Translations under genes and position numbers: made by a program | Part shown: positions 2,627 through 45,982 of the stretch, one piece after another | Layout: the number at the start of each line of letters is the position of its first letter | Position numbering within the stretch: the first letter of the stretch is position 1 | Origin: Chloroflexota bacterium | GTDB lineage: Bacteria; Chloroflexota; Dormibacteria; Dormibacterales; Dormibacteraceae | Direction of reading: 5' to 3' | DNA: 45,982 nt | NCBI GenBank assembly: GCA_005881335.1 | Contig: VBFV01000070.1 | Coordinates: forward strand, 1-45,982 | Notes under the pieces: generated by a model | Database searches by the model: none | Seen by the model: only the letters and a program-made list of their open reading frames with translations | What the model was told of the DNA's origin: nothing

Positions 2627-3763
2627 TTACGAGCGGATCAGAAGCGCCTCTCTGGTGAAGAGCCTCAACGCCGCGTAAAAGCACAGCGCCCCGAGGAGAA
2701 GGAGGCTGGCCGAGGTCACGATCAGGGAGCTCCAGGCGACCGCGCTGTGGACGATCGCATCGCGCAGCACCAGCACGGCGTTGAGGATCGGGATCAGGTA
2801 GTAAGCGAGACTCGGATTGAAATCCGGGATGAACAGCACGATCGAGGCGGGGAAGATGGTGATGAAGTAGAGAGGCGTCGCGTATGCCTGACCCTGCCGA
2901 AAGTTGCGAGCCAGGGTCCCGAGTGCGATGGTCACCGAGCTGAACGATGCCGCCAGCAGCACGGCGAGCCAGATCATCACGATGGCCGCCAGCGGGCTGA
3001 GGTCGACCGGGAAGGCGCTGCCCTCACGCCCCCCAAACTGGATCTGGCTGAGCGCCACCAGCATCGAGGCGATGGCGGCCAGGGCTGCTGTCAGGCTGAT
3101 CACCGAAACGGCCAGGATCTTGCCGACCAGCACATGGCTGCGGGGCGCGGGGGTCAGGAGCAGGCTCTCCAGCGTCCTTCGCTCGCGTTCGCCGGCGGAG
3201 GTATCGAGCGCCGCGGACAGTCCGCCGGTCAGGCTCATCGTGATCAGGATGTAAGGCAGGAAGAAGCTCAGGAAAGAGTTCCCGGCCGCTTTGACCGGCG
3301 AGCTCAGCGGATGCACGTTGACGGGAAGAGGGTTGAGGATCGAAGGGTCGACTCCCTTCTGCTGCAGCGAGGCGGCGATCTTCGCGGCGTCGTACTTGGC
3401 CAGGATCGTCTGGACCCTGATGTCGGCGATCTGGGCGCTTTGCCGAGTCGGGTCGTAGTACTCATCGATCCCTGCCGGTGTGAAAACGATCCCGATGTCG
3501 ACCTGCCGCTTGGCCGCCGCCGCGGGGTCGTCGACGCGTTCGAGCCTGAGTCCCGTGGCGCCGAACAGGACGTCCAGGCCGGCTGGAATGTCGCCCGAGT
3601 AGCCGACGGTATAGGTCTGGGTCGCCGTTCGTGTCGAAACCTGGGAGATCACAAACAGCACGGTTGGTGTCGCCAGGACTGCGAGTGCAATCGCGATCAG
3701 CGTGCGGCGGTCGCGGAGGATCTCGCGGATCTCCTTCCTGAACACGATGCCCACCGAGCTCAC
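2627..3763 (-). CDS. ABC-2 type transporter permease (NatB-like)
   Basis: ORF 2627..3883 trimmed to a GTG at 3763 that overlaps the upstream ATPase stop (GTGA). N-terminus VSSVGIVFRKEIREILRDRRTLI, ABC-2 motif ERERRTLESLLLTPAP, a large extracytoplasmic loop and C-terminal TM helices. Confidence 0.8.
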   Translation of the reverse strand: MSSVGIVFRKEIREILRDRRTLIAIALAVLATPTVLFVISQVSTRTATQTYTVGYSGDIPAGLDVLFGATGLRLERVDDPAAAAKRQVDIGIVFTPAGIDEYYDPTRQSAQIADIRVQTILAKYDAAKIAASLQQKGVDPSILNPLPVNVHPLSSPVKAAGNSFLSFFLPYILITMSLTGGLSAALDTSAGERERRTLESLLLTPAPRSHVLVGKILAVSVISLTAALAAIASMLVALSQIQFGGREGSAFPVDLSPLAAIVMIWLAVLLAASFSSVTIALGTLARNFRQGQAYATPLYFITIFPASIVLFIPDFNPSLAYYLIPILNAVLVLRDAIVHSAVAWSSLIVTSASLLLLGALCFYAALRLFTREALLIRS

Positions 3764-4488
3764 GTCGCCGCCTCGACGAGGGAGAGAAATGCGTCCTCGA
3801 GGTCGCGGTATTTGCCGCGCACCTCCTCGGTCTTGCCGTTCGCGACGACGCGCCCCTGGTGGATGATCGTGATCCTGTCGCATAACCGCTCAGCGTCGTG
3901 CAGCACGTGTGTCGAGAAGATGACGCATTTGCCGCGGCCCTTCGATTCGACCATGAACTCGCGGATCTCGCGCGAGGCGAGGACATCGAGGTTGGAGGTT
4001 GGCTCGTCGAACATCAACACAGGTGGGTCGTGCACGATCGCCCGCGCGATGGCGACTTTCTGTTTCTGGCCCGACGACAGACTTTCGGCCCTCTGCCGCG
4101 CGAATGAGCTCATATCGAGACGCTCGATGACTGCGTCGACTTTCCGGTTGAGCTCACCGTCCATCACGCCGCTCAGCTCGGCGAAGTAGGCGATGTTCTC
4201 GCGTGCCGTCAGGCGTGGGTAGACGCCGAACTCCGCGGTCACGACGCCGACCCTGCGCCGCACCTCTTGGGGCGCCATTCGGGTGTCGTGGCCCAGCACG
4301 CCGACCGAGCCGGCGTCCGGTGCAAGCAGCGTGCAGATGACACGCAGGGTGGTGGTCTTGCCCGCGCCGTTGGGTCCGAGGAGGCCGAAGATCTCGCCCG
4401 CGGCCGCCTCGAACGAGATGCCGCGGAGCACCTTGTTGGTCTGGAGGGTCTTTTCGAGGCGGTCAACCTTGACCGCCGGATCGGTCAC
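3760..4488 (-). CDS. ABC transporter ATP-binding protein (NatA-like)
   Basis: ORF 3760..4779 trimmed to the GTG at 4488 (VTDPAVKVDRLEKT...), which overlaps the upstream gene stop as GTGA. Walker A GPNGAGKTT, signature LSSGQKQKV, Walker B VLMFDEPTS. The ORF residues upstream of this GTG are the alternate-frame reading of the neighbouring repeat. Confidence 0.9.
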   Translation of the reverse strand: MTDPAVKVDRLEKTLQTNKVLRGISFEAAAGEIFGLLGPNGAGKTTTLRVICTLLAPDAGSVGVLGHDTRMAPQEVRRRVGVVTAEFGVYPRLTARENIAYFAELSGVMDGELNRKVDAVIERLDMSSFARQRAESLSSGQKQKVAIARAIVHDPPVLMFDEPTSNLDVLASREIREFMVESKGRGKCVIFSTHVLHDAERLCDRITIIHQGRVVANGKTEEVRGKYRDLEDAFLSLVEAAT

Positions 4489-4904
4489 TTCTTTTTGGGG
4501 ACTCGCCTCGTCGCGGTGGACGTCGGTTTGCCGCCTCTCGCGGCAGGCTTGGCGGTCTTCTTGGCACGCGCGGGTTTTGGCCTGGCGGGCGCGGCCTTTG
4601 GCTTGGCGGGCGCGGCCTTTGGCTTGGCGGGCGCGGCCTTTGGCTTGGCGGGCGCTTTTGCCTTGACCGGCGCAGCCGTCTCGACCGGCTCTTCCACCGC
4701 GACGGGTGCCTCGACGGCGACGGGTTCGGCGGACGCGACGCCGACTGAGCTCGACAGGGTCCGGTGGCAGGTTTCGCACGTCACGATGCTTCGGACCAGG
4801 GTGCCGAGCTGGTGCTCTTCCCGGCGGAGGTTGCGGGGTCGACCGCAGAACGAGCAGTAGCCCGTCTCGATCGTGACCCTCACCTGGCCAGGTCGCTTGT
4901 TCAT
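4485..4904 (-). CDS. zinc-ribbon protein with a Lys/Ala/Pro-rich repeat tail (histone-H1-like)
   Basis: 139 aa. Two CxxC pairs (CSFCG, CETCH). The C-terminal tail reads AKAPAKPKAAPAKPKAAPAKPKAAPARPKPARAKKTAKPAARGGKP...VPKKK. First gene of a minus-strand string coupled to the ABC ATPase by a GTGA overlap. Confidence 0.65.
   Translation of the reverse strand: MNKRPGQVRVTIETGYCSFCGRPRNLRREEHQLGTLVRSIVTCETCHRTLSSSVGVASAEPVAVEAPVAVEEPVETAAPVKAKAPAKPKAAPAKPKAAPAKPKAAPARPKPARAKKTAKPAARGGKPTSTATRRVPKKK
4570..4653. repeat. 21-bp in-frame tandem repeat (3 perfect copies plus 1 degenerate copy)
   Basis: The unit gcggcctttggcttggcgggc starts at 4591, 4612 and 4633 (period 21). A degenerate copy lies at 4570-4590. 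On the minus strand it encodes AKPKAAP x3 in the zinc-ribbon protein. Confidence 0.9.
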
Positions 4905-4990: not shown

Positions 4991-5917
4991 ATGGCCGTCG
5001 GGTCCCGACTCCGTCATGTAGTCGAGAGTCAGCAGTTCTCACGCGCTCTCCTGGAAGAGCTTTTCGTTCGCTCCGAGGAGATGAAGCGCGAGCCGCACCA
5101 CTTCATTGGACGGCTCGCGGGCCAGGTGATGGCCGCTCTTTTCTACGAACCCTCGACCAGGACCCGACTCTCTTTCGAGGCGGCCATGCTGCGCCTCGGT
5201 GGGACGACGATGGGTACCGACAACGCCCGCGAATTCTCATCCGCGGCGAAGGGCGAGACGCTCGAGGACACGATCCGCATCGTCAGCGGATACGCCGACG
5301 TCATTGTGGTGCGGCACAAAGAGGAAGGCGCCGCCAAGCGCGCTGCAGCGGTGAGCGCGGTGCCGATCATCAACGCGGGTGACGGCCCTGGCCAGCACCC
5401 GACGCAGGCGCTGCTGGACCTCTACACGATCCGTGACGAGCTCAGCAAGATCGACGGCGTCCGTGTGGCGATGGTCGGCGACCTGGCCAACGGCCGGACC
5501 GTGCGCTCGCTGACCTACCTGCTCAGCAAGTTCAAGGACATCAAGCTCTGGTTTGTAGCTCCGCCCCAGGTTGCGATGGGCGACGACCTGAAAGCGCATC
5601 TGGACGAGCACCATGTGCCGTGGGTCGAGACAGAGGATCTCAACGCGGTGCTGCCGGACGTCGACGTGGTGTACATGACCCGGATCCAGAAGGAGCGATT
5701 CACAGACCCCGAGGCGTACAACGCGGTGAAGGGTGTCTACCGGATGGACAAGGCGTCGATGACGCTGATGCGCAAGTACGCGATCCTCATGCACCCGCTG
5801 CCGCGGGTCGACGAGATCGCGCCCGAGGTCGATGAGGATCCGCGAGCGGCATATTTCCGGCAGGCCCGCAATGGCCTGCACATCCGCATGGCCCTCCTCG
5901 ACAAGCTTCTGTCGTGA
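4991..5917 (+). CDS. pyrB: aspartate carbamoyltransferase catalytic subunit
   Basis: 308 aa with motifs STRTR, HPTQALLD and HPLPRV. A strong SD (GGAAGGAGG) lies 7 nt upstream of the ATG. Confidence 0.95.
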   Translation: MAVGSRLRHVVESQQFSRALLEELFVRSEEMKREPHHFIGRLAGQVMAALFYEPSTRTRLSFEAAMLRLGGTTMGTDNAREFSSAAKGETLEDTIRIVSGYADVIVVRHKEEGAAKRAAAVSAVPIINAGDGPGQHPTQALLDLYTIRDELSKIDGVRVAMVGDLANGRTVRSLTYLLSKFKDIKLWFVAPPQVAMGDDLKAHLDEHHVPWVETEDLNAVLPDVDVVYMTRIQKERFTDPEAYNAVKGVYRMDKASMTLMRKYAILMHPLPRVDEIAPEVDEDPRAAYFRQARNGLHIRMALLDKLLS

Positions 5918-6462
5918 GCGTCACCGAAGGACGCCTCAAAGCCACGGTCATGGACGCGGACCAGATCCGCCGCTCGCTTTCGCGCATCGCCCATGAGATC
6001 GTGGAGCGCAATCGCGGCGTCGAGGGCGTGGTGCTCGTCGGCGTCGTCAGCAAGGGCGACGTTCTAGCGCAGCGCCTCGCCCAGATCCTGACCACGCTCG
6101 AGAAGAGTCCGGTCCTTTTCGGCCGGCTCGACGTGACGCTGCACCGCGACGATCTGCACCTCCGGCCGCACGACGGCCACCGGTCGGGAAGCGACCTGCC
6201 CGACATCGGCGGCAAGGTCGTGGTGCTGGTCGACGATGTGATCCATCACGGCCGCACAGCGCGAGCGGCGATGGATGCGCTGATGGACTTCGGGCGTCCC
6301 CGCGCGATCCAGCTGGCGGTCCTGGTCGACAGGGGCCACCGCGAGCTGCCGATCCGGCCCGACTATGTCGGCAAAAACGTCCCGACCGCCGATTCAGAGC
6401 GAATCGAAGTCCTCATGGCCGAGGAAGACGGAATCGACCAGGCGGTGATCGTTGCCGGCTGA
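5914..6462 (+). CDS. pyrR: bifunctional pyr operon regulator / uracil phosphoribosyltransferase PyrR
   Basis: 182 aa. PyrR-like N-terminus ([21 protein letters not shown]) and a PRPP-binding loop [17 protein letters not shown]. The GTG start overlaps the pyrB stop (GTGA). Confidence 0.9.
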
Positions 6463-9400
6463 GAAGACGTTTGCGGTACTCGTGCTCGAGGACGGCCGCT
6501 CCTTCGTCGGTGTGCCGCTCGGGGCCGATGCCCTGGGTCAAGGAGAGGTCGTATTCAACACCGCCATGACGGGTTACCAGGAGGTGCTGACCGACCCTTC
6601 GTATGCCGGTCAGATGGTCTGTATGACATACCCGCTGCAGGGCAACTACGGCGTGCGCGACGCCGACGCCGAATCGGCGCGTCCGTGGGCGCGCGCGCTG
6701 ATCGTGCGCTGGGCTTGCCCCGCGCCCAGCCATCACTCGAGCGAAGCGTCGCTCGACGAGTACCTGCGACGGTGGAACGTTCCGGCGATCACGGAGATCG
6801 ACACCCGTGCTCTCACGCGCCATATCCGAATCAATGGAGCGCAGCGGGCGGTCCTGGTCCATGAGCCCGCCGCCCCGACGCAGGCACGGCTCGACGAGCT
6901 CGTGGCCGCCGCGAAACGCGTGACGCCGCTTGCGGAGCAGGACCTGGTCGCCGAGACCTCGCGGACGAAACAGGAAGAGTGGCTCGAGCCGCTGCCGCCC
7001 GAGCTGCGGACCCGCCGGCGGAGCGACGGCGCCGGCCTGCTCGTGGCCGTCGTCGACTACGGCGTCAAGACCAACATCCTGCGCTCGCTTCGCGAGCGAG
7101 GCTGCCGGGTGGTCGTGATGCCTCACACCGCCACATGGGCGGACGTGCAGGCGAGCGGCGCCGACGGCCTGGTGCTGTCGAACGGACCTGGCGACCCGGC
7201 GGTGCTGGACGGGCCCGTGGAGCTGGCCCGCGCGGCGCTCGGCCGGATCCCGATGTTCGGGATCTGCCTCGGCCACCAGATCATGGGTCGGGCCGCCGGC
7301 GCGACCACGTCGCGCCTGCCGTACGGCCACCACGGGGTCAACCACCCTGTCAAAGACGCCGACACCGGCCGCGTGCACATCACCAGCCAGAACCACGAGT
7401 TCCAGGTGGACGCGGTGTCAATCCCGGCCGGCGACTTCTACGTGTCCCAGCGCAACCTCAACGACAGCTCGGTCGAGGGCCTCGGCCACCGTCGGCTGCC
7501 GGCTTTCAGCGTGCAATATCACCCCGAAGGCTGTCCTGGTCCCCAGGACAACCAGCATCTCTATGACCGGTTCATCGACATGGTGCGCAGCGGCGCGCCG
7601 GTCGCCAAGGCTGTCGCGGGAATGAAGGAGCAGCCACGGCCTCGCAAAGTACTCATCCTCGGCTCGGGGCCGATCGTGATCGGCCAAGCGGCCGAGTTTG
7701 ACTACGCCGGGACTCAGGCTTGTAAAGCGCTGCGCGAGGAAGGCATCGAGACCGTGCTCGTGAACTCCAACCCCGCGACCATCATGACCGACGAGGACGT
7801 CGCCGACCGCGTTTACCTGGAGCCGCTCACGGTCGAGGCGGTGGAAAGGATCATCGCGCGCGAGCAGCCAGACGCTCTGCTCCCCACGCTCGGTGGACAG
7901 ACCGGGCTCAACCTTGCGACCGACCTGGCCAACGCGGGCGTCCTCGAGCGGCATCACGTCCGGCTGCTGGGCGCGACCATCGACACGATTCGCAAGGCGG
8001 AAGACCGCCAGGCTTTCAAGCAGATGCTGGAAGAGATCGGCGAGCCGGTCCCGATCTCGCGGGTGTGCGAGTCGATGGAAGAAGTCAGGGACTTCGCTTT
8101 GGCGAACGGGCTTCCGCTCGTCATCCGGCCGGCCTACACGCTGGGCGGCACCGGCGGCGGTTTCGTCACCACGAAGGCCGACCTCGAGCGCGTGGCCGTC
8201 CGAGGCCTTGCCGCATCACCAATCCACCAGGTGCTCATCGAGCGCTCGCTTTGGGGCTGGAAGGAGATCGAGTACGAGGTGATGCGCGACGGCGCGGACA
8301 CGTGCATCACGGTCTGCAACATGGAGAACCTCGACCCCATGGGAGTGCATACGGGCGATTCGATCGTCGTCGCGCCGGCGCAGACGCTGTCCGACCGCGA
8401 CCACCAGATGCTGCGCTCGTCGGCGATCCGCATCATCCGCGCGCTCGGCATCGAGGGCGGCTGCAACGTGCAGTTCGCGCTGGATCCGAAGAGCTCGGAT
8501 TACTACGTGATCGAGGTGAACCCACGGGTCAGCCGCTCGTCGGCGTTGGCGTCGAAGGCGACCGGTTACCCGATCGCGCGCGTGGCCGCCAAGGTCGCCG
8601 TCGGCAGGCGGCTGGAGGAAATCCGCAACGAGGTCACCGGCCGCACCTTCGCGGCCTTCGAGCCCGCGCTCGACTACTGCGTCGTCAAGATCCCGCGCTG
8701 GCCGTTCGACAAGTTCCCCGCGGGTGACCGCAGGCTCGGCACTCAGATGGCGTCGACGGGCGAGGTGATGGCGGTCGAGCGCACTTTCGAGGCGGCGCTC
8801 ATCAAAGCCATGAGGTCGCTCGAGCAGAAGCCGCCGGTGGCGTGGGAGCTCGGCCCGGAGACGATCGACCAGCCCAACGACCGCCGCCTGTTCGCCCTCC
8901 TGGACGCGCTGCGCAACGGCGCCGATGCGGAGTCACTGGCGGAAAGGAGCCGCATCGACAGGTGGTTCATCGACCGGCTGGCCAGCCTCGTGCGGCTGGA
9001 GGTCGAAGGCGACGTTCGCGAGCTCAGGCGGGCCGGATTCTCCGACTCCATGATCGCGGCGCTGCGCGGCGATGCCGTTCCACCATCCACACCAACCTAC
9101 AAGCTCGTCGATACGTGCGCCGGCGAGTTCGAGGCGGCGACGCCCTACTACTACTCGTGCTGGGAGGAGGAGACTGAATCGACCCCGGTCGCGACGCAGA
9201 CCGTGATCGTCATCGGATCGGGCCCGATTCGGATCGGCCAGGGAATCGAGTTCGACTACTGCTCCGTCCACGCCGCATGGGCCTTGCGCGACTCCGGCGT
9301 GCGCGCCGTGCTCGTCAACTCCAACCCCGAGACGGTGTCGACCGACTTCGACACCTCCGACCGCCTTTACTTCGAGCCGCTCGACCTCGACGGCGCTCTG

Positions 9401-10786
9401 AACGTCGCGCGGACCGAGCGGGTGGCTGGCGCGCTGGTCCAGTTCGGCGGCCAGACCGCGATCAACCTGGCCGAGCAGCTCGACCAGCACGGCATCCCGA
9501 TCATGGGTTCGAGCGTCGAGGCCATCGACCTGGCGGAGGACCGCCGAGCGTTTGCGCGCTCGCTGGATGCGATCGGCATCCCACAACCGATGGGGGGCAC
9601 CACGACCACGGTCGAAGAAGCCGAAGCCATCGCGGATCGCGCCGGCTATCCGGTGCTGGTCCGGCCGAGCTACGTGCTTGGCGGGCGAGCGATGGAGATC
9701 GTGCGCAACCGCGACGAGCTTCGGCGTTACATGGTGTGGGCGATCAGCGCCATGCCGCGCGGCCAGGTGCTCGTCGACAAGTACCTGCAGGGCACCGAGG
9801 TGGAGGTCGACGCGATCTCCGACGGAGACACGGTCGTCATCCCGGGCGTCATGCAGCACGTCGAGCGGGCGGGCGTGCATTCTGGGGACTCATACGCGGT
9901 CTATCCGGCGCAAGGCCTGGAGCGTGCTGAGATCGACCGCATCGTCGACTACACGGTCCGCATCGCGCGCCACCTGCGTCTGCGCGGCCTGGTCAACGTG
10001 CAGTACGTGGTGCACCGCGGCCATGTCTACGTGCTGGAGGTCAACCCGCGCGCGTCGCGCACGGTGCCATTCCTGTCCAAGGTCACCGGCGTGCCGATGG
10101 TCAAGCTCGCGACCAGCGTGATGCTGGGCGAAAAGCTGGCCGATCGCGGCTGGGCGACGGGGCTTGTGCCGCCGCGGGACCTGGTGGCGGTGAAGGCCCC
10201 GGTCTTCTCCATGAACAAGCTGCCGGCCGTGGATTCCTACCTCGGTCCCGAGATGAAATCGACGGGCGAAGCGATCGGCATCGCGGGCACGTTGAACGAG
10301 GCGCTGCGCAAAGCCTTTGCCGCGTCGGGCATGCACGTCGAGCGCGGAAGCGCGGCGCTGCTCACGATCGCCGACGCGGACAAGCCCGAGCTGTTCCCGA
10401 TCGTGTCTCGCCTCATCCAGCTCGGGTGTCGTTTGGTCGCGACTGATGGCACCGCGCGGGCGCTGCGCGCGGCGGGCTTCTCGCCTCGCGTCGTCGCCAA
10501 GATCGGCGAGGAGGGCCCGACCGTCCTGGACGTCATCGTCCGCGGTGAGGTGCAGCTCGTCATCAACACGATGTCGAACATCTATGAAGACCCCGGCGAT
10601 GGCAATCCGGTCTTCAAGGACGGCTTCGAGATCCGCCGGGCCGCCGTCGAGCGGCGCATCCCGTGCCTCACCTCATTGGACACCGCCACCGCCCTGCTCG
10701 AGTCCGCCGTCGTCGCGGCCGACGAGCTGGAGGTGCGAACCATCGACGAATGGCGCGCGGGGAGGACTGATCCTGTTCGTGCTTGA
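6452..10786 (+). CDS. carAB: carbamoyl-phosphate synthase, small (glutaminase) and large subunits fused in one ORF
   Basis: 1444-aa uninterrupted ORF. Residues 1-390 are CarA-like ([25 protein letters not shown], active-site HH...HPE). From Met391 (ATG at 7622) onward it is CarB-like ([24 protein letters not shown], two ATP-grasp halves, MGS-like C-terminus). TTG start at 6452. Confidence 0.85.
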
Positions 10787-11531
10787 CACGCCGGTGACCG
10801 GCAAACGCCAGGTCGCCCGGGGCATGTTCGTGATCGGCATGCACGCCCCGGAGATCGCATCTGCCGTGCGTGCGGGCCAGTTCGTCAACCTCGGATGGTC
10901 TGGAGGTCCAATTCTGCGCCGCCCCTTCTCGGTCTACCGCGCGGAAGGCGAGCACATCGAGGTGGTCTTGAAGGCGGTCGGCAGCGGCACCGGGCAGATG
11001 CTCGCGATGGAGGTCGGCGACCGGCTCAGCTGCCTCGGCCCGCTGGGACGCGGATTCGAATTCGGTGGCGGCGCCAGGGAAGCCGTGCTGGTCAGCGGCG
11101 GTCTCGGTGTCGCGCCGATGCTGCTCGCGGCCCGCGACGCGAGGGTCGCGGGCATGAAGGTCACATGGGTCCATGGCGCTCGCACGGCCGCCGAGCTGTG
11201 CTCCGAGATGGACGGGGACACGGTGATCTGGGCCACCGACGACGGCTCACAGGGCACCCCCGGCTCCGCGGTCGCGGCGGCGCCGGACGCGGACCTCGTG
11301 ATCGCCTGCGGGCCGAACCGCATGCTCGCCGCGGCCGCCGAGCGATGGCCGGAGGCGCAGGTGGCGGTCGAGACTTACATGGGCTGCGGGACCGGCGTAT
11401 GCCTTGGGTGCGCGGTGCCGCTCAAACGCGGCGGCTACGACCGCGCGTGCAAGGAAGGCCCGGTCTATCGCGCCGCGGACATCGATTGGGACGCGCTGCC
11501 GTCGCATCTCCCTTACGCGGTGGTCGCATGA
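10779..11531 (+). CDS. pyrK: dihydroorotate dehydrogenase electron-transfer subunit
   Basis: ORF 10317..11531 trimmed to the GTG at 10779, which overlaps the carAB stop by 8 nt. Motifs: FAD/NAD-binding fold ([22 protein letters not shown]) and C-terminal 2Fe-2S cysteines [10 protein letters not shown]. Confidence 0.85.
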
Positions 11532-12442
11532 GCACGGACATGTCGGTCGCGGTCGGCGGCATGAAGCTGCGCGGCCCGGTGCTTGCGGCCTCGGGCACGT
11601 TCGGTTATGGCACGGAGGTGCCGTTGCTGGAGCGTCGCGCATTGGGCGCGATGGTGTCGAAAGGCATCTTCCTTCGCCCGAGGGAGGGCACCGCCCCGCC
11701 ACGCATCGCCGAAACGCCGAGCGGGATGCTCAACGCGATCGGCTTGCAGGGGCCGGGCGCCGACGCGCTGGTGCGCGATTACGCGCCTCAGTGGGCGGAG
11801 TGGGATTTCCCGGTGCTGGTCAACATCAACGGCGAGTCCGTCTCGGAGTACGCGGAGCTGACCTCGCGCTTGGACGGCGTCCCGGGCGTCGCCGGCTTCG
11901 AGATCAACATCTCGTGCCCGAACGTCGAGCAGGGGGGCATGTTCTTCGGCAACGACCCCCGCGCCGCGGCCACGGTTACCGAGGCGGTGCGCAAGCGGAC
12001 GAAGCTGCCGGTCTGGGTGAAGCTGACGCCGATGGTCAGCGATATCGGAGTCATCGCGCGGGCGGTCGAGTCGGCCGGTGCCGACGCGCTCTGCGCGATC
12101 AACACTTTCGTCGGCATGTCGATCGACCTGAACGCGTACCGGCCGCGTCTGAGCTTCAGGACAGGCGGCCTGTCCGGACCGGCGATCCGTCCGCTTGCGG
12201 TTCACCTCGCGCACCAGGCCGCGCGCGCAGTCCGCATCCCGGTGATCGGGATTGGCGGGATCGCGCGAGCCGAGGACGCGCTGGAGTTCCTGGTCGCCGG
12301 CTGCACCGCGGTCCAGGTCGGCACAGCGACGTTCGTCAACCCGAAGGCGATCGCCGAGGTCCACGATGGGATTGCATCGTTCCTCGAAGCTCGCGCGTTC
12401 AGATCGCTTGCCGACCTGCCCCGCTACTTGCCTCGAGACTAG
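11528..12442 (+). CDS. pyrD: dihydroorotate dehydrogenase, class 1B catalytic subunit
   Basis: ORF trimmed to the ATG at 11528 (ATGA overlap with the pyrK stop). Motifs: LRGPVLAASGTFGYG, NISCPNV (active-site Cys), GLSGPAIRP and GIGGI. Confidence 0.9.
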   Translation: MSTDMSVAVGGMKLRGPVLAASGTFGYGTEVPLLERRALGAMVSKGIFLRPREGTAPPRIAETPSGMLNAIGLQGPGADALVRDYAPQWAEWDFPVLVNINGESVSEYAELTSRLDGVPGVAGFEINISCPNVEQGGMFFGNDPRAAATVTEAVRKRTKLPVWVKLTPMVSDIGVIARAVESAGADALCAINTFVGMSIDLNAYRPRLSFRTGGLSGPAIRPLAVHLAHQAARAVRIPVIGIGGIARAEDALEFLVAGCTAVQVGTATFVNPKAIAEVHDGIASFLEARAFRSLADLPRYLPRD

Positions 12443-39263: not shown

Positions 39264-40267
39264 CAGCGAGTCATCGTAAGTTGATCCAGCGGGCGGAAGT
39301 TCAGGATGCGATCTCGTGGGATGCCCGCCCGGCGGGCCATCCACAACGCCATCGGGACGTATGCGAACTCGGCCGGGGCGTGTGCGTCGGCGTCGATCGC
39401 AAACGAGCATCCGAACTCGAAGGCCAGGCGGGCCATCTCGGGCGAAAGGTCCATGCGGGCCGGGTCGCAGTCGATCTCCAGCGCCACACCCCGCTTGGCG
39501 GCTTCCTTGAAAACCAGCTCGTAGTCGTAAGACGCGCCCTCGCGCGAGCCTGGACGACGCCCGGTCGGATGGCCGATCACGTCGACGTGTGGGTGCGAGA
39601 CGGCACGCATCATCCGCTCCGTCATGGCCGCGGGTTCCTGCCGCAGCTTCACGTGCGGCGAGGCGATGACGATGTCGAGAATCTCAAGCACCGCGTCCGG
39701 CAGGTCCAGCGACCCATCTTCGAGGATGTCGACCTCGATGCCCTGTAGGAGTGTCAGACCGTCGACCTGGCTCTGCACCTCGGCCATCTCGCGCGACTGC
39801 GCGACCAGCCGCTCGGCGTTGAGGCCGTGCACGACGGTGATGCGTGGCGAGTGGTCGGTGATCCCCAGATAGCTGTAGCCGAGCGCCTGCGCTCCCTGAG
39901 CCATCTCCAGCATCGTTGCCCGGCCGTCGCTCCAGTCGGTGTGGGAGTGGACGTCGCCCTGGTAGTCGCCCAGGTCGAGGTCGGATTCGTCGTCGCGGGC
40001 GGGCTGCTTGAACTGCTCGCGGAGCCGGTTGAGATAACGACTCTGTCCGGTCTGAATGACGTCGGCCAGGACCCTGGCGATTCCTTCTCCGACGCCTTCG
40101 ATCGAGGTCAAGTTCTCGGCCCGCTGCAGGTCGACCAGGTTGGGCCGTTGCAGCGTGACGGACCACGCGGCAGTGGAGAACGCCTTGGCGCGAAACCGCT
40201 CCTTGGGATCCTGGCGGAGCAGATAGCCGATCTCGGACAGGACCTGCGCCGCTTCAATCGCATCCAA
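39263..40267 (-). CDS. PolX-like protein: 8-kDa helix-hairpin-helix domain fused directly to a PHP phosphoesterase domain
   Basis: ORF trimmed to the TTG at 40267, giving (M)DAIEAAQVLSEIGYLLRQDPKERFRAKAFSTAA...IEGVGEGIARVL, which is PolX N-terminus-like. About 110 aa later comes the PHP motif GDVHSHTDWSDG, then GITDHS and ASPH. Total length is about 334 aa. Confidence 0.65.
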   Translation of the reverse strand: MDAIEAAQVLSEIGYLLRQDPKERFRAKAFSTAAWSVTLQRPNLVDLQRAENLTSIEGVGEGIARVLADVIQTGQSRYLNRLREQFKQPARDDESDLDLGDYQGDVHSHTDWSDGRATMLEMAQGAQALGYSYLGITDHSPRITVVHGLNAERLVAQSREMAEVQSQVDGLTLLQGIEVDILEDGSLDLPDAVLEILDIVIASPHVKLRQEPAAMTERMMRAVSHPHVDVIGHPTGRRPGSREGASYDYELVFKEAAKRGVALEIDCDPARMDLSPEMARLAFEFGCSFAIDADAHAPAEFAYVPMALWMARRAGIPRDRILNFRPLDQLTMTR

Positions 40268-40289
40268 CCCGTAAATTGTGTGAGCAACG

Positions 40290-40871
40290 ATGGCTACACC
40301 AAAGCCCAAACCGGGCGACCCGATCCCCGAGCTGGTCGAATCGCTGTTGGTCGAGCTGGGCGAGGACCCGGATCGGCAGGGCCTCAGGGCGACGCCCGAC
40401 CGCGTGGCTCGGGCGATGCGCGAGCTCACCAGCGGCTATGGCGTCAAACCGGAGGAGGTCGTCGCCGACGCGGTCTTCGACCAGGACTACGACGAGATGG
40501 TCGTGGTCAAGGACATCGCTTTCTACAGCCTTTGCGAGCATCACATGCTGCCTTTCTTCGGGCACGTCCACGTCGGTTACCTGCCCAAGGGCAAGGTTGT
40601 CGGGCTGAGCAAGATCCCGCGCCTGGTCGAGGTCTTCTCGCATCGGCTCCAGATCCAGGAGAAGCTCACCAACGAGATCGCCGAAGCGCTCAACCAGGCG
40701 GTCGCGCCCAGGGGTGTCGGCGTGGTCGTCGAAGCGCGCCACCTCTGCCTGGAGATGCGCGGCATCGAGACTCCAGGTGGCCGGATGATCACGTCCTGCA
40801 TGCTCGGCACCTTCCGGCGCGACCCGCGGACCCGAGCCGAATTTCTGAACCTAGTCCGTCAGTCCGCCTGA
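40290..40871 (+). CDS. folE: GTP cyclohydrolase I
   Basis: 193 aa with motifs FYSLCEHHMLPFFG, HRLQIQEKLT and CLEMRG. Confidence 0.95.
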   Translation: MATPKPKPGDPIPELVESLLVELGEDPDRQGLRATPDRVARAMRELTSGYGVKPEEVVADAVFDQDYDEMVVVKDIAFYSLCEHHMLPFFGHVHVGYLPKGKVVGLSKIPRLVEVFSHRLQIQEKLTNEIAEALNQAVAPRGVGVVVEARHLCLEMRGIETPGGRMITSCMLGTFRRDPRTRAEFLNLVRQSA

Positions 40872-40887
40872 GCCCGAGCCTCAATAC

Positions 40888-40920
40888 ATAAACCAGCCTT
40901 TATGCTTTAGACTGGCTTAT
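40888..40920. promoter_or_regulatory. imperfect inverted repeat in an AT-rich spacer (candidate ArsR-type operator/promoter)
   Basis: ATAAACCAGCC (40888-40898) and GACTGGCTTAT (40910-40920) match as reverse complements at 9 of 11 positions. CCTTTATG also occurs twice, 30 bp apart. TATAAA lies at 40917-40922, about 11 nt before the arsR ATG, and there is no SD. Confidence 0.35.
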
Positions 40921-40932
40921 AAAGCAACCTTT

Positions 40933-41262
40933 ATGTTTCTTCAGAACCCGCGGAACGAGCTGCCGGACCACTTCCTGGCCTTCGCCAACCCCACGCGCCT
41001 GCGCATCCTGGAGCGCCTGGCCCAGGCAGGCGAGGTCAATGTCAACGACCTGGCCCTGTACCTGCACATGAGCCAGCCCCGTATCTCCTGGCACCTGCGG
41101 ATGCTCCGAGTCGGCGGCGTGATCCGCACCCGCCGTGAGGGTAGGCAGGTCTACTGCTCGCTGGACCTGGAGAACATCCGGCGCTTTCGCCGGCGCCTGG
41201 ATCAACTGCTCGGCATGACACAGATTGAAAAAGCAAAAGTTCGTGAGGAGGTTGGGGCATGA
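40933..41262 (+). CDS. ArsR/SmtB family transcriptional regulator
   Basis: 109 aa with the ArsR helix-turn-helix pattern ([51 protein letters not shown]). It has no CVC-type alpha-3 metal site and only one Cys. Confidence 0.85.
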
Positions 41263-42434
41263 GCGCCCAAAAGAACGGTCATCGCAATGGCAAGGTACGA
41301 GTTGCCGTCGTCGGCGTCGGCAACTGCGCCTCGTCGCTCGTCCAGGGCGTGCACTACTACCGCGACGCATCGCCCAAAGAGTCCGTGCCTGGGCTGATGC
41401 ACGTTGACCTCGGCGGCTATCACATCCGTGACATCGAGTTCGTCGCCGCGTTCGACATCGACAAGAACAAGGTGGGGCTCGACCTCTCCGAGGCCATATT
41501 CGCAAAGCCCAACAACACCGTGAAGTTCGCGGACGTGCCTCGCGCCGGCGTGAAAGTCCAGCGCGGCATGACCCACGACGGCATCGGCAAGTACCTCTCC
41601 GAAGTCGTGCAGAAGGCGCCCGGCGAAACCTCGGACGTAGTCGGCATCCTGAAGAAGACGAAGGCCGACGTGATGGTCAGCTACCTGCCGGTCGGCTCCG
41701 AAGAGGCGACCAAGTGGTACGTCGAGCAGGCACTGACCGCGGGCGTGGGATTCGTCAACTGCATCCCGGTCTTCATCGCGCGCGAGCCGTACTGGCAGAA
41801 GCGTTTCCTCGACAAGAATCTGCCGATCATCGGCGACGACATCAAATCGCAGGTCGGCGCGACCATCATCCACCGCGTCCTGACCCGCCTGTTCCGCGAC
41901 CGCGGCGTGAAGCTCGAGCGCACCTACCAGCTCAACTTCGGCGGCAACACGGACTTCCTGAACATGCTCGAGCGCGAGCGCCTGATGTCCAAGAAGATCT
42001 CCAAGACTCGGTCCGTCACGTCACAGCTCGACTACGACATCGGCAAAGACAACGTGCACATCGGCCCGTCGGACTACGTGCCCTGGCTGAACGACCGCAA
42101 GTGGGCCTACATCCGGCTCGAAGGCCGCTCGTTCGGCGACGTGCCGCTGAACGTCGAGCTGAAGCTCGAGGTGGTGGACTCGCCAAACTCGGCCGGAATC
42201 GTCATCGACGCTGTGCGCTGCGCCAAGCTGGCGCTCGACCGCGGTCTCGGTGGAGCGCTCGAGGGACCCAGCTCCTACTTCATGAAGTCGCCGCCGGTGC
42301 AGTACAGCGACAACGACGCCAGACGGCTGGTGGAGGAGTTCATCGAAGGTGATAAGGCCGGAGTCAATGGGCGCGACGGGCGAGACCGCCGCACCCCCCG
42401 CGTCAAGCCGGCGACCGCGACTGCTCGCCGCTAG
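41259..42434 (+). CDS. ino1: myo-inositol-1-phosphate synthase
   Basis: 391 aa with motifs [38 protein letters not shown] and SKKISKT. The ATG overlaps the arsR stop (ATGA). A basic C-terminal tail of about 25 aa overlaps the next gene. Confidence 0.9.
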
Positions 42435-43263
42435 CTACGCCGCCGGAGCACGCGCGCTGCGTGTGGTGCCGGCCGGGGTCCGGCATGCCGTCGCCGCACC
42501 TGGCGGCGTGGCGTGGTTCTGGCTGAGCCCGGCCCAGCGGAGCGCGGCGCTCGACAACTACGCCACGGCGTTGGGCCGCGACCGGTCCGACCCCGACGTG
42601 GCTCGCGTCGCCAGGCGCGCCTTCCAGAACTACGGCCGGATGCTGATGGACTTCCTGCTCCTCGGCAGCCTCACGCCGGATGAGTTGATCGCCCGCATGT
42701 CCGTCGACGGCCGAGAGCACCTCGACGCCGCGCTCGCTCATGGCCGCGGCGTGATCATGGCCGTGCCGCACATGGGCTCGTGGGACATGGCGGGCTCGTA
42801 CGCCGGCGCGCTGGGGTACCGGATCTCCGCGGTGGCCGAACGCTTTCCCGGCTCTCTCAACGACGCGGTGGTGGCAACCCGCGAGCGTTTCGGCCTGAAC
42901 GTCATCACCCTGGGACGAGCCGCTGTCAGAGGAATCAACGAAGCGCTGGCTGCCAACCATGTCGTCGCTTTGTTGTGCGACCTGGAACAGGGGCCTGGAC
43001 TCAGTGTGAATTTCTTCGGCCGCCGCGCGACGGTACCTGGGGGACCTGCAGCTTTTGCCCTCAAGACGGGCGCGGCGCTCCTCCCCGCCTGCCAGTACGC
43101 GACCGCGGCCGGTCGATATCACGTGCACCTCGACCCGGCGCTGGCGGCGCACGAAGGCGACACAAAAGAGACCCTCATGCAGCGGGTGATCGGCCGATTC
43201 GAGGATTTCATCAAGGAGCGTCCCGACCAGTGGTATGCATTTCGGCCGATGTTCAGTCGCTGA
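42367..43263 (+). CDS. lysophospholipid (HtrB/PatA-like) acyltransferase, copy A
   Basis: ORF 42349..43263. The start is uncertain: ATG at 42367 or GTG at 42349, and both overlap the ino1 3' end. LPLAT motifs: HX4D as PHMGSWD, then DLEQG...[25 protein letters not shown]. Confidence 0.8.
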
Positions 43264-44453
43264 GGGATGGGCGAATGGACATGGCGCGGATTCAAAGTCG
43301 TGCAGTCGCTGGTGGAGCGCTTGCCCCGGTCGTGGGCGTATGCGCTTGCCGTGATGGCGGCGCGTCTGGCATGGCGTTTCTCTCCACTGGCGCGTCCGCG
43401 CCTCGAGTACAACCTCAAGATTGCGTGTCCGGAGCTGCGGGACGACCCGGTGGCGTTGCGGCGTCTGTCCAGGCTGAACTTTCAGAATCACGCCAAGGCT
43501 TACGCCGACCTGATGCAGCTTCCGAGCGCGAGGATCGAGGCCATGCGGCCGCTGCTGAAGGTGACGGGTTTGGAAAATCTCGACGCCGCGCGCAGTCATG
43601 GCCGCGGCGTGATCATGGCCGTGCCGCACATGGGCTCGTGGGACATGGCGGGCTCGTACGCCGGCGCGCTGGGGTACCGGATCTCCGCGGTGGCCGAACG
43701 CTTTCCCGGCTCTCTCAACGACGCGGTGGTGGCAACCCGCGAGCGTTTCGGCCTGAACGTCATCACCGTGGGACGAGCCGCTGTCAGAGGAATCAACGAA
43801 GCGCTGGCTGCCAACCATGTCGTCGCTTTGTTGTGCGACCTGGAACAGGGGCCTGGACTCAGTGTGAATTTCTTCGGCCGCCGCGCGACGGTGCCTGGGG
43901 GACCTGCAGCTTTTGCCCTCAAGACGGGCGCGGCGCTCCTCCCCGCCTGCCAGTACGCGACCGCGGCGGGTCGATATCACGTGCACCTCGACCCGGCGCT
44001 GGCGGCGCACGAAGGCGACACAAAAGAGACCCTCATGCAGCGGGTGATCGGCCGATTCGAGGATTTCATCAAGGAGCGTCCCGACCAGTGGTATGCATTT
44101 CGGCCGATGTTCAGTCGCTGAGGGATGGGCGAATGGACATGGCGCGGATTCAAAGTCGTGCAGTCGCTGGTGGAGCGCTTGCCCCGGTCGTGGGCGTATG
44201 CGCTTGCCGTGATGGCGGCGCGTCTGGCATGGCGTTTCTCTCCACTGGCGCGTCCGCGCCTCGAGTACAACCTCAAGATTGCGTGTCCGGAGCTGCGGGA
44301 CGACCCGGTGGCGTTGCGGCGTCTGTCCAGGCTGAACTTTCAGAATCACGCCAAGGCTTACGCCGACCTGATGCAGCTTCCGAGCGCGAGGATCGAGGCC
44401 ATGCGGCCGCTGCTGAAGGTGACGGGTTTGGAAAATCTCGACGCCGCGCGCAG
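42738..44453 (+). repeat. tandem direct duplication, 2 x 858 bp
   Basis: My base-by-base comparison found unit 1 (42738-43595) and unit 2 (43596-44453) to differ at 3 positions: 42910 C vs 43768 G, 43035 A vs 43893 G, and 43110 C vs 43968 G. ORF-track pairs offset by exactly 858 nt corroborate this (42738..43064 with 43596..43922, and 43119..43418 with 43977..44276). Confidence 0.95.
43267..44121 (+). CDS. lysophospholipid acyltransferase, copy B (chimera: copy C N-terminus plus copy A C-terminus)
   Basis: 284 aa. Residues 1-110 are identical to copy C. Residues 111-284 are identical to copy A residues 131-304 except for one Leu to Val change. It is created by the 858-bp tandem duplication. 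Confidence 0.75.
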   Translation: MGEWTWRGFKVVQSLVERLPRSWAYALAVMAARLAWRFSPLARPRLEYNLKIACPELRDDPVALRRLSRLNFQNHAKAYADLMQLPSARIEAMRPLLKVTGLENLDAARSHGRGVIMAVPHMGSWDMAGSYAGALGYRISAVAERFPGSLNDAVVATRERFGLNVITVGRAAVRGINEALAANHVVALLCDLEQGPGLSVNFFGRRATVPGGPAAFALKTGAALLPACQYATAAGRYHVHLDPALAAHEGDTKETLMQRVIGRFEDFIKERPDQWYAFRPMFSR

Positions 44454-45003
44454 CCTGGGCAGGGGCGTACTGGCCGTGTCCTGCCATATGGGTTCGTACG
44501 AGGTGGTGTCGGCGATCTGGGCCGCGACGCTGGCGCCGGTGAGCTTCTTCGCCGAGGAGCTGGAGCCTCGAGCGCTTTTCGAGTGGTACCGCGACACACG
44601 AGCGCGTCTCGGGATCAGCGTTCTGACGCTCGACATGGGAGGCATCCGCAAGGTGCTCCAGGCTCTGCGCGAGCAGGAGATGGTGATCACAGCGATCGAC
44701 CGCGACATCACGGAAACCGGCTATCTGATGCCTTTCTTCGGCAAGCTGGCGCCGATCCCGCTGGGGCCGGCGTCGATTGCACTGCGTCTCGGCACACCGC
44801 TCTTGCCTGTGTGCGTTTACCGATTGCCGGACGATACGTACATGGCCGAGGCTGCGCCGCACGTGTTCGCGAAGCCGACAGGCAACCCGCGCGCCGACCA
44901 GGTGCGGGCCACGCAGGAGCTCTTGCGCCAGATCGAGGGCTTCATCCGGCAGCATCCGGAGCAGTGGCACGTCCCGCACCGCATCTGGCCTGGCACACCA
45001 TGA
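44125..45003 (+). CDS. lysophospholipid acyltransferase, copy C (diverged paralogue)
   Basis: 292 aa of the same family. The motif is CHMGSYE (HX4E variant), followed by DRDITETG...FFGKLAPIPLGPASIALRLGTPLLP. By eye it is only about 30% identical to copy A in the catalytic half. Confidence 0.8.
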   Translation: MGEWTWRGFKVVQSLVERLPRSWAYALAVMAARLAWRFSPLARPRLEYNLKIACPELRDDPVALRRLSRLNFQNHAKAYADLMQLPSARIEAMRPLLKVTGLENLDAARSLGRGVLAVSCHMGSYEVVSAIWAATLAPVSFFAEELEPRALFEWYRDTRARLGISVLTLDMGGIRKVLQALREQEMVITAIDRDITETGYLMPFFGKLAPIPLGPASIALRLGTPLLPVCVYRLPDDTYMAEAAPHVFAKPTGNPRADQVRATQELLRQIEGFIRQHPEQWHVPHRIWPGTP

Positions 45004-45136
45004 GAAAGAATCGCGGGTGGATCAGGATCCCCCCACGAGCCCCCCTCTCCGGGCAACGTCTGGCAGGCGATTGGTATGGCAACGCTTGGGTGGCGGCCGG
45101 AGTGAAGCCGGCCTACGCGCCGCGTGGGGTTTCTCC

Positions 45137-45982
45137 ATGAAAGTCGGCCTCGTTTCACCGTATGACTTCGCGTCGCCTGGTGGCGTCAACGACCATGTCC
45201 GCCGCCTCGCCGTCCGGCTGCGACAGCTCGGCCATGAGGCGCGCATCTTCGCGCCGTCCAGCCGCGCCGATGTCGACTTCGACAGCGCGCGCTTCTACAG
45301 GATCGGGACGCCGATCGCCATCCCGGTCAACGATTCGGTGGCGCGCATCACGCTCAGCTTTCACCTTGCCAACCAGGTCGCCGCGATCATCGCCGACGAG
45401 GGCTTCGACGTCCTTCATTTCCACGAGCCCTTGATGCCCGCCCTGCCGATCACCATGCTGCGGATGTCGACCACGGCCAACGTCGGAACGTTCCACGCCT
45501 TTGCGCGATCCAACGTCGGTTACTTCTACGGCCGGCCGCTGCTCCAGCCGTACCTCGCGCATCTGCATCGCGGCATCGCGGTCAGCGAGCCGGCCCGCGC
45601 GTTCGTGCAGCGCTACTTCCCCGATTTCCCGCTGCGCGTCATCCCCAACGGTGTCGATCTCAACGTCTACCGTTCGGGCCTGGCGCCCATCCGGCACCTG
45701 CGCGACGAGAACCTCAACGTCCTGTTTGTGGGACGGCTCGAAAAGCGCAAGGGCCTTGGCGATCTGCTGAGGGCGTATCGCGCCATGAGCATGCGCGTCC
45801 CCCAAACCCGGTTGATCATCGTCGGCGACGGCCCGCTCCGCGGCCGGGTCGAGTCGTACGTCGCGCGCCACCGCCTGGCGAACGTGGTCCTAGCGGGTTA
45901 CGTGCCAGAGAGCGTGAAGCCGCGGTACTACAACAGCGCCGACATCTTCTGCGCCCCGGCAACGGGCGCTGAGAGCTTCGGC
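45137..45982 (+). CDS. pimA: phosphatidylinositol alpha-mannosyltransferase-like GT4 glycosyltransferase (3' end cut by the window edge)
   Basis: This ORF is absent from the track because no stop is reached; I translated it by hand from the ATG at 45137. The product MKVGLVSPYDFASPGGVNDHVRRLA...FDVLHFHEP...GTFHAF...IPNGVDL...LFVGRLEKRKG...CAPATGAESFG is collinear with my recollection of mycobacterial PimA. Confidence 0.8.
   Translation, partial: MKVGLVSPYDFASPGGVNDHVRRLAVRLRQLGHEARIFAPSSRADVDFDSARFYRIGTPIAIPVNDSVARITLSFHLANQVAAIIADEGFDVLHFHEPLMPALPITMLRMSTTANVGTFHAFARSNVGYFYGRPLLQPYLAHLHRGIAVSEPARAFVQRYFPDFPLRVIPNGVDLNVYRSGLAPIRHLRDENLNVLFVGRLEKRKGLGDLLRAYRAMSMRVPQTRLIIVGDGPLRGRVESYVARHRLANVVLAGYVPESVKPRYYNSADIFCAPATGAESFG

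Follow-up and report, generated by a model that had tools for sequence, protein, structure and literature searches.

Does the acyltransferase array in this DNA record a single duplication event that placed a new hybrid enzyme gene between its two parents? The window, i.e. the whole stretch of 45,982 nucleotides that was analysed, carries two acyltransferase genes, here called A and C, and between them a gene B that combines parts of both. We consider it probable, at about 0.68, that B arose through a young, lineage-specific tandem duplication in a phosphatidylinositol-mannoside (PIM) type operon of a soil Dormibacterota bacterium, by an in-register exchange between A and C. The three genes are the following:

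42349 to 43263, plus strand: acyltransferase A, PatA-like, motif HMGSWD (Pfam PF03279, E 5.8e-42).
43267 to 44121, plus strand: hybrid gene B, 284 aa, C(1-110) followed by A(131-304) (Pfam PF03279, E 2.8e-38).
44125 to 45003, plus strand: acyltransferase C, PatA-like, motif HMGSYE, 292 aa (Pfam PF03279, E 9.7e-35).

With 144.3 (A), 132.2 (B) and 120.6 bits (C), all three proteins exceed the curated PF03279 cut-off of 22.3 bits, and the match of B is complete. The top-scoring family for A, B and C alike is NCBIfam NF005919, the PIM acyltransferase equivalog; since the scores of 174.8, 174.6 and 150.5 bits do not reach its cut-off of 209, we call the proteins PatA-like and not PatA. A comprises 304 aa if read from the GTG at 42349 and 298 aa if read from the ATG at 42367. 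The 298-aa form is the version on record elsewhere, with the exact protein on six other contigs, and the exact protein C is found on seven. The open reading frames bear out the composition of B proposed in the first-pass annotation, namely an in-frame fusion of C(1-110) with A(131-304) that joins the N-terminal part of C to the HX4D-bearing core of A, with a sole residue change from L to V. At the positions that discriminate the two families, B is C-type at 21 of 22 in its N-terminal region, the exception being an A-type Q at residue 73 that C in the window carries as well, and A-type at 28 of 28 in the core; a C-type block is followed by an A-type block. No older A/C exchange was found in other species, where each of 158 orthologues is cleanly A-type or C-type at the 50 family-discriminating positions.

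At the DNA level, the array resolves into two head-to-tail units with one novel junction:

42738 to 43595, no strand: duplication unit 1, from the last base of A codon 130 to the A stop and on through the GGG spacer into the opening 329 nt of a C-type 5' region, which form the 5' part of B (offset-858 comparison).
43596 to 44453, no strand: duplication unit 2, made up of the 3' portion of B, which is A-type, the spacer and the opening 329 nt of C.
43595/43596, plus strand: novel junction gcgcgcag/tcatggcc, within codon 110 of B (AG/T).

In the offset-858 comparison the units are unlike at 3 of 858 bases (99.65% identity, far beyond chance), and the identity drops at once beyond both unit bounds. 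The differences lie at 42910 (C/G), 43035 (A/G) and 43110 (C/G; unit 1/unit 2, in unit 1 coordinates), with G at all three corresponding positions of unit 2 (43768, 43893 and 43968), i.e. a C-A-C haplotype in unit 1 versus G-G-G in unit 2. The sole amino-acid change between the copies, L to V, comes from CTG to GTG at 42910/43768; the differences at 43035 and 43110 are synonymous and occupy third codon positions. The two adjacent units running from mid-A to mid-C, their three differences (one non-synonymous, two synonymous) and the junction strings of A, C and B were all found exactly as first annotated. A repeat search recovered the 858-nt spacing as well; TRF remained silent on it, because its longest period is only 500. 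A whole-contig repeat comparison detected no repeat of comparable kind in the remainder of the 46-kb contig.

Which arrangement is the older one? The first-pass annotation had proposed a comparison of the locus in related genomes, and this comparison returned A-C without B throughout. The two-gene form is present in 80 of 80 Dormibacterota species loci, in which A and C are the orthologues of the first and second acyltransferase, respectively. Likewise, all 13 conspecific contigs, which come from independent samples and include the NCBI MAG GCA_005883535.1, carry a single unit and align at about 97-99% identity, uninterrupted through both unit boundaries. The alignments thus indicate that A-C is the ancestral state. 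A and C are indeed old paralogues, as had been claimed, with 32% identity (BLASTP) and a pair kept in every one of the 80 loci.

Searches for B itself pointed to this contig. An exact-protein look-up gave no second exact copy, and in a full-length homologue search among about 15 billion proteins B was the singleton of its 90% cluster, the other matches being ordinary A-type proteins. A comparison of an 80-aa junction peptide with a set of 5.8 billion proteins scored only 11 candidates and missed even B, which makes it uninformative. For the junction 23-mer, the JGI metagenome contigs contain no true match; the lone match obtained, on a contig without similarity to the window, was set aside as chance. 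The suggestion that domain shuffling had been caught in the act is possible, but with B nowhere else and A-C in all of the 80 loci and 13 contigs it is unsupported beyond one contig.

The same restriction of B and its junction to one contig, next to 13 of 13 single-unit conspecifics, would be expected if the organism had A-C only and the array were the product of chimeric molecules or reads, of a mistake by the assembler or scaffolder, or of strain haplotypes placed in tandem. For example, in-vitro template switching between A and C during amplification could create the junction, after which the assembler would walk the loop once. An origin of this kind would also fit the fact that two of the three copy differences are population polymorphisms, as from two strain haplotypes threaded through the loop, as well as the position of the duplication close to the contig end, where the repeat ends 1.5 kb short of the last base. 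Moreover, in L001, a contig of the same population, the intergenic stretch that follows C is present in tandem as variant copies of 90% identity, which meet at a hairpin-like repeat of about 31 nt that they share; tandem-variant oddities therefore do arise in these assemblies.

How does the junction bear on such an artefact? Upstream of it lies the longest exact match between A and C:

42721 to 42733 (A), 43579 to 43591 (B) and 44437 to 44449 (C), plus strand: 13-nt block CTCGACGCCGCGC, longest exact A/C match, in register.

The block is embedded in a 32-nt stretch with 24/32 A/C identity and stops 4 nt 5' of the switch point, and exactly at the switch A and C share zero bases. Homologous codons are joined: an ungapped block of the BLASTP alignment pairs A H131 with C L111, and codon 110 of B takes AG from the AGC of C and T from the GCT of A to give AGT, with Ser retained. 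By itself, the length of the match is unremarkable, and 7% of codon shuffles yield a longest A/C match of at least 13 nt. The coincidence lies in a junction that is in register and also beside the longest A/C identity; of the roughly 8x10^5 breakpoint pairs that are possible, about 23 offer this combination (arithmetic from the gene lengths). The earlier statement that the junction shows no extended homology holds in that no long repeat flanks it, but it passes over the perfect 13-nt block that ends 4 nt before the switch. Of the illegitimate or microhomology-mediated event derived from that statement, a homology-free illegitimate join fits poorly with a junction of homologous codons 4 nt from the longest A/C identity. 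A DNA hairpin as a trigger of slippage or cleavage was also considered, given an 8-bp stem around the switch in A, and was rejected, as the folding energies of the junction hairpins are within chance (z = -0.9, -0.85 and -0.25).

Several routes to an artefact lose plausibility at this junction. A cycle in a de Bruijn graph needs a shared exact (k-1)-mer with k of 21 or more; with a shared block of no more than 13 nt and a switch outside that block, a k-mer mis-join appears unlikely, and real junction-bearing molecules would be needed. In-vitro template switching would require priming with three mismatches in the last 4 bases, which should be rare relative to genomic coverage, and random ligation chimeras are not expected in register. 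In addition, the alleles 43290 A, 43341 T and 43422 T occur in both copies and in 0 of the 13 other contigs. Due to these three private alleles in common, the two copies are, as judged from the allele comparison, each other's closest relatives, as would also be expected of a real duplication in a single lineage. We thus regard an artefact as unlikely, if far from negligible, and the duplication as probably real, young and strain-specific, so that it would be present in cells, beyond the assembly.

Can the three differences serve to date the event? The first-pass annotation had read the few substitutions as a sign of a very recent duplication or of copies under homogenisation. Among the 13 conspecific contigs roughly 33 of the 858 sites of the unit are polymorphic, and tri-allelic sites account for two of the three differences (A/G/T at 43035 and G/C/T at 43110), which makes the substitution count an unsafe clock. 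The chance that at least two of three new mutations would fall on polymorphic sites is about 0.4% (arithmetic), and the differences at 43035 and 43110 resemble polymorphisms brought in by import or strain mixing more than they do new mutations. The same two sites would also suit a reading in which the junction is real and the structure misstated, i.e. the junction stems from a minority subpopulation, from an amplified array of at least three units (A-B-B-C) or from an 858-bp circle that was excised. Here, the three differences would be strain polymorphisms phased arbitrarily by the assembler, with no difference between the true copies and an event still younger than it seems. Indeed, the copies are identical over stretches of up to 658 nt (43111-43767), and short-read k-mers alone cannot phase an 858-nt unit. 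The sequence offers no argument against this reading; one of the differences, the G at 43768 (L to V), is found in copy 2 alone and does not match any known allele of the population. We hold such a misstatement to be improbable; it refines the duplication explanation and does not contradict it.

Based on the position of the junction, we propose that the duplication arose by unequal, in-register, short-homology recombination or template switching between the adjacent paralogues. From the A-C arrangement, C would have paired in register with its neighbour paralogue A, either between misaligned sister chromosomes or through a nascent strand. The pairing site would be the best-conserved A/C DNA, the 13-nt identity, which encodes L-D-A-A and closely precedes the strand of the catalytic His, and strand exchange there would yield A - B - C, with a product B that combines the N-terminal helical region of C with the alpha/beta catalytic core of A. 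A simple crossover within the identity block fails as an explanation, as the switch lies 4 nt outside it; the offset would need heteroduplex extension, mismatch segregation or a homology-independent join. Tandem duplications are usually unstable and heterogeneous within bacterial populations. By default, B is expected to be transient and unstable, since homologous recombination easily removes direct repeats of 858 bp.

In which pathway would the hybrid act? Two genes flank the array:

41259 to 42434, plus strand: ino1 (myo-inositol-3-phosphate synthase; Pfam PF01658, E 3.6e-37).
45137 to 45982, plus strand: pimA-like GT4 glycosyltransferase (Pfam PF13439 and PF00534), truncated by the contig end.

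The first biosynthetic gene of the operon is ino1, whose 3' end overlaps the start of A and whose score against NCBIfam TIGR03450 (557.8 bits) is under the cut-off of 638. Among solved structures the pimA-like gene is best matched by PimA (4n9w and 2gej, E 3.5e-37), the next GT4 following at 2e-7. The gene order folE, arsR, ino1, A, (B), C, pimA-like, continued in relatives by a PI-synthase-like gene, suggests a phosphatidylinositol-mannoside type glycolipid operon, and acylation of phosphatidylinositol mannoside by A, B and C is predicted with support from the ino1, pimA-like and PI-synthase-like neighbours. A 3-nt GGG spacer follows each TGA stop and the TGA-GGG-ATG coupling is kept; a scan of 40200-45982 found no promoter consensus or terminator inside the operon. 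Since the duplicated unit includes the spacer, the start context of C and the stop context of A, B is expected to be co-transcribed and coupled in translation in the same way as its parents, and would thus be expressed.

Among the papers covered by a literature search on inositol lipids in Dormibacterota, none pairs dormibacter* with phosphatidylinositol or inositol. The operon of ino1, two PatA-like, PimA-like and PI-synthase-like genes, shared by all sampled Dormibacterota, predicts acylated phosphatidylinositol-mannoside-type lipids outside Actinobacteria and is the more broadly useful by-product of this analysis.

Could the hybrid be a working enzyme? The AF2 model of B (pLDDT 84, pTM 0.84) was compared with solved structures by Foldseek, which placed PatA 5f2z first (E 9e-18, TM 0.75/0.85) and LpxM 5kn7 next. 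B is thus predicted to adopt the PatA/LpxM fold, a prediction that says nothing on the stability of the hybrid. In the model, the junction is located in a loop between the helix of residues 102-109 and the strand of residues 115-119. H121 of B is aligned with the catalytic His of PatA, H126, and D191 with E200; the His and the acid, which is Asp here and Glu in PatA, are kept in at least 90% of the A and C orthologues (80 species). [quoted passage not shown] The PatA Y83-D131 contact was tried as a test of co-adaptation between the halves and was discarded, Y83 being conserved in neither A nor C. An N-terminal region from C on a core from A might confer a new acceptor or chain-length specificity. 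We consider it very improbable, however, that B is a functional, selected new enzyme at high frequency in one strain; if true, it would represent neofunctionalisation through segment shuffling, seen essentially at birth.

A tandem duplication with a hybrid gene at the join point is a known type of event, a textbook kind of mutation that is usually transient, and the duplication opens no new question. What is new here is one further instance, with no other assembly containing B. If reads confirm it, the locus would be a clean natural case of the birth of a hybrid enzyme gene in one step, in which the old, functionally differentiated neighbouring parents are both intact and the exchange took place with almost no DNA homology. 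It would also offer a useful illustration and a ready-made chimera for asking which half of a PatA-type enzyme sets specificity.

How does the array compare with known systems? Haemoglobin anti-Lepore and the red/green opsin hybrids are duplications with a hybrid gene that arise via unequal crossing-over between tandem paralogues. As in those cases, diverged neighbours would have misaligned in register, and the outcome is a parent - hybrid - parent order with an in-frame hybrid of unchanged domain order. In contrast to them, A and C share only 32% protein identity and at most 13 nt of identical DNA, so that pairing would have occurred without long homology, and the event is seen in one contig of an uncultured bacterium. 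A generic literature search for bacterial precedents of chimeric tandem duplicates gave eukaryotic papers only. Short-junction, RecA-independent tandem duplications have reportedly been described by Roth and colleagues in Salmonella and E. coli. The duplication resembles these in its few to about a dozen bases of homology at the join and in being of a kind that should form often, be unstable and disappear through recombination between its copies; it differs in that the switch lies 4 nt past the homology block and that homologous codons are joined into a full-length hybrid enzyme.

According to the passage of PMC4792965 that cites them, squash/spinach GPAT chimeras, of the same acyltransferase superfamily, indicate that segment swaps between homologues can yield active enzymes with altered acyl selectivity, an outcome that B might share; unlike these engineered and assayed proteins, B is natural and has much more divergent parents. 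The best solved-structure match of B by both sequence (E 7e-23) and fold is mycobacterial PatA (MSMEG_2934 / Rv2611c). As in the mycobacterial pgsA1-patA-pimA cluster, the genes adjoin pimA-like and PI-synthase-like genes. However, identity to PatA is about 29%, the host belongs to Dormibacterota and not to Actinobacteria, and the single PatA of mycobacteria stands against two conserved paralogues here, one of the HX4D and one of the HX4E type.

Self-comparison of the contig at an offset of 858 nt resolved two adjacent units, 42738-43595 and 43596-44453, which differ at exactly three positions (42910 C/G, 43035 A/G and 43110 C/G) and whose similarity drops at once beyond 42738 and 44453. The 858-nt spacing was also recovered by a separate repeat search of the window; Tandem Repeats Finder missed the repeat solely because its longest period is 500. 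No second repeat comparable to it was found elsewhere in the 46-kb contig. The units lie within three consecutive acyltransferase genes:

42349-43263, + strand, acyltransferase gene A
43267-44121, + strand, hybrid acyltransferase gene B
44125-45003, + strand, acyltransferase gene C
Upstream neighbours: folE, an ArsR-type regulator and ino1
Downstream neighbour: a GT4 glycosyltransferase, cut by the contig end

The sequence TGA-GGG-ATG separates A from B and, likewise, B from C. In B, the first 110 residues are those of C and the rest correspond to residues 131-304 of A, the only amino-acid replacement being L to V; the remaining two copy differences (43035 and 43110) are synonymous third-position changes. 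The switch lies inside codon 110 of B, which takes AG from the AGC of C and T from the GCT of A. The first-pass annotation is thus upheld in its two units with three differences, one of them non-synonymous and two synonymous, and in its composition of B, and the junction strings that it gave are exact. At the 5' end of A, the gene overlaps the 3' end of ino1 (42349-42434) by 68-86 nt, according to whether GTG 42349 or ATG 42367 is taken as the start, as is also the case in many relatives.

Elsewhere in the window, a fused carbamoyl-phosphate synthetase small and large chain forms one ORF of 1444 aa (6452-10786, + strand), with the CarA domains (CPSase small chain, GATase) at residues 10-376 and the CarB domains from residue 398. 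It lies in a pyrimidine cluster with a pyrB-like gene (4991-5917), a pyrR-type PRTase (5914-6462) and a DHO dehydrogenase (10895-12442); a 98-nt, 73% repeat at 7731/9285 reflects the internal duplication known from CarB. A minus-strand ORF for an ABC-transporter ATPase (3760-4779) has a 21-nt tandem repeat, CTTGGCGGGCGCGGCCTTTGG (4560-4655, 4.6 copies, 92% matching), directly upstream of its conserved part. In the frame of this ORF it reads as KGRARQA repeats, which probably precede the true start.

A, B and C each match Pfam PF03279 (lipid A biosynthesis acyltransferase family) far over threshold. Their best NCBIfam family is NF005919, the phosphatidylinositol-mannoside acyltransferase equivalog, but with 175, 175 and 151 bits, respectively, all three remain under its 209-bit cut-off, and we therefore call them PatA-like rather than PatA. 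By sequence, the best solved structure is mycobacterial PatA (E 7e-23), followed by LpxM (2e-6). The downstream GT4 has PimA 4n9w and 2gej as its closest solved relatives (E 3.5e-37; next GT4 2e-7), and in a close relative, locus L008, a CDP-alcohol phosphatidyltransferase is the next gene after it.

Is the arrangement of three acyltransferases common among relatives? The names borne by homologues and by the retrieved genomes put the contig in Candidatus Dormibacterota, whose MAGs formerly went under 'Chloroflexi bacterium'. We scanned one genome per GTDB species and obtained 80 loci (L008-L087), almost all of them with a Dormibacterota or Chloroflexi label. Each showed the order folE-arsR-ino1-A-C with exactly two acyltransferases, except that the retrieved stretch lacks ino1 or folE in a few. 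In 71 loci, A-C is followed colinearly by the pimA-like and PI-synthase-like genes; the other nine end too early to tell. The complete operon reads as follows:

Window 40290-45982 and loci L008-L087 (e.g. L008 3914-9626): folE, arsR-type regulator, ino1, PatA-like A (HMGSWD), PatA-like C (HMGSYE), PimA-like GT4, CDP-alcohol phosphatidyltransferase

This gene order predicts acylated phosphatidylinositol-mannoside-type glycolipids outside Actinobacteria, made with two differentiated acyltransferases. Our literature search returned no paper connecting Dormibacter* with (phosphatidyl)inositol.

A and C, described at first pass as old, diverged paralogues, are indeed old and differentiated: they are 32% identical, and across the 80 species the two families are separated by 50 positions at which each shows conservation of 90% or more but for different residues, including HMGSWD in A versus HMGSYE in C. 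The comparison of the locus in related genomes that had been proposed yielded A-C only, both in the 80 species loci and in 13 further contigs, ~97-99% identical to the window, which turned up when the C and A proteins were searched for exact matches. Each of these contigs comes from its own sample or assembly (MEGAHIT assemblies of ENA, metagenomes of JGI, or the NCBI MAG GCA_005883535.1). All 13 carry one unit, and their sequence runs straight across both unit boundaries. No other exact copy of the B protein is on record, and B forms a one-member cluster in a collection of 15 billion proteins, where its entry gives the window as a complete contig of 45,982 bp. The junction 23-mer had one match in JGI contigs, unrelated and by chance, and none of the 80 species holds a mosaic A or C orthologue. 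Thus, judged from these sequences, the A-B-C state is derived, and this contig is so far the only one that has it.

We consider a genuine duplication probable (about 0.7), including the variant where the contig misstates copy number or phasing. An artefact of assembly or library is unlikely, even though the event is known from one contig only and lies 1.5 kb from its end. A de Bruijn cycle requires a (k-1)-mer common to both genes; no exact match between A and C exceeds 13 nt, and the join falls outside the 13-nt block, so that the sequenced material must have included junction-bearing molecules. For in-vitro template switching, priming despite three mismatches in the last four bases would have been necessary, and random ligation chimeras would not join in register. 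Tandem oddities do occur in these assemblies: L001, a contig of the same population, has the intergenic stretch after C in tandem variant copies that are 90% identical. There, however, the copies are joined at a hairpin-like repeat of ~31 nt, long enough for a small-k mis-join, unlike A/C. This MEGAHIT contig ends (2500-2842, corresponding to window 45009-45192) with three copies of the element, GAATCGCGGGGGGATCAGGATCCCCCCACGG, and two copies of the intergenic stretch of ~120-190 nt, which represent either genuine local repetition in the strain or the assembler's stringing together of strain variants.

The two units have three alleles in common that occur in 0 of the 13 further contigs, the expected pattern where one copy arose from the other within this lineage. 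The copy differences themselves are less clear-cut, two of the three falling on sites that are tri-allelic in the 13 contigs (43035: A 8, G 4, T 1; 43110: G 8, C 3, T 1), which an artefact would accommodate; L to V is the sole private change. Positions 43035 and 43110 (and 43893 and 43968) are unusually variable third-codon positions in gene A. With ~33 of 858 sites polymorphic, by our arithmetic at least two of three fresh mutations would hit such sites with a probability of ~0.4%, and the differences are therefore more likely recombination imports, or co-occurring strain alleles spread by the assembler over two loop passes. Hence they provide no clock, and the very recent event that had been read from the few substitutions does not follow.

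The join links precisely homologous codons of A and C within an ungapped BLASTP block. A 13-nt block, CTCGACGCCGCGC, is present in register in A, B and C, ends 4 nt upstream of the join and is the longest exact match anywhere between A and C; in the 32 nt around it, A and C are identical at 24. The earlier view of a join lacking extended homology holds as regards long homology, but it overlooked this neighbouring match and the homology of the joined codons. A longest match of 13 nt is not unusual in itself (7% of codon shuffles). Breakpoint pairs both in register and beside the block, however, number ~23 of ~8x10^5 possible by our arithmetic, which favours an unequal exchange or a template switch between the neighbouring paralogues, in register and guided by short homology, and makes a homology-independent join, in register by accident, very improbable. 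On this view, A and C would pair in register at the short homology, and exchange or switching would take place at the paired stretch. Heteroduplex extension and segregation, an inferred last step, would then shift the switch several bases beyond it, into adjoining DNA that is mismatched. A hairpin around the switch was considered as well; its potential structure is no better than chance.

The AlphaFold2 model of B (pLDDT 84, pTM 0.84) matches PatA best (TM 0.75/0.85), then LpxM, a confident predicted fold being no proof of stability or activity for a hybrid of 32%-identical parents. In the model, a loop connects the last N-terminal helix (102-109) to the first core strand (115-119), and the junction falls within this loop, six residues ahead of the strand of the catalytic His; in the B-PatA alignment it maps to D115|A116. 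B is C-type at 21 of 22 discriminating N-terminal positions, the exception being B73 (Q), where C of this contig is also A-type, and A-type at each of the 28 core positions, in agreement with the proposed origin of the catalytic half from A and the N-terminal half from C. It keeps the catalytic His and the acid that aligns with E200. In PatA, helices alpha2-alpha4 have a role in membrane association and the acceptor groove, the alpha5-alpha6 loop plus alpha6 cap the acyl-chain pocket, and H126 and E200 catalyse (PMC4792965). B would accordingly combine membrane and acceptor-groove elements (alpha2-alpha4) from C with the catalytic core and acyl tunnel walls from A. Since engineered GPAT chimeras show altered acyl selectivity (PMC4792965), a functional hybrid is conceivable; that B represents a selected, functional new specificity seems very doubtful. 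Direct repeats of 858 bp are easily lost through homologous recombination, and a transient variant is therefore the default expectation for A-B-C.

In mechanism, the event is a bacterial counterpart of anti-Lepore-type or opsin-type unequal crossing-over, and it is similar to short-junction tandem duplications. Both the mechanism and PatA-like PF03279 genes are known in kind, whereas this instance is new and unconfirmed.
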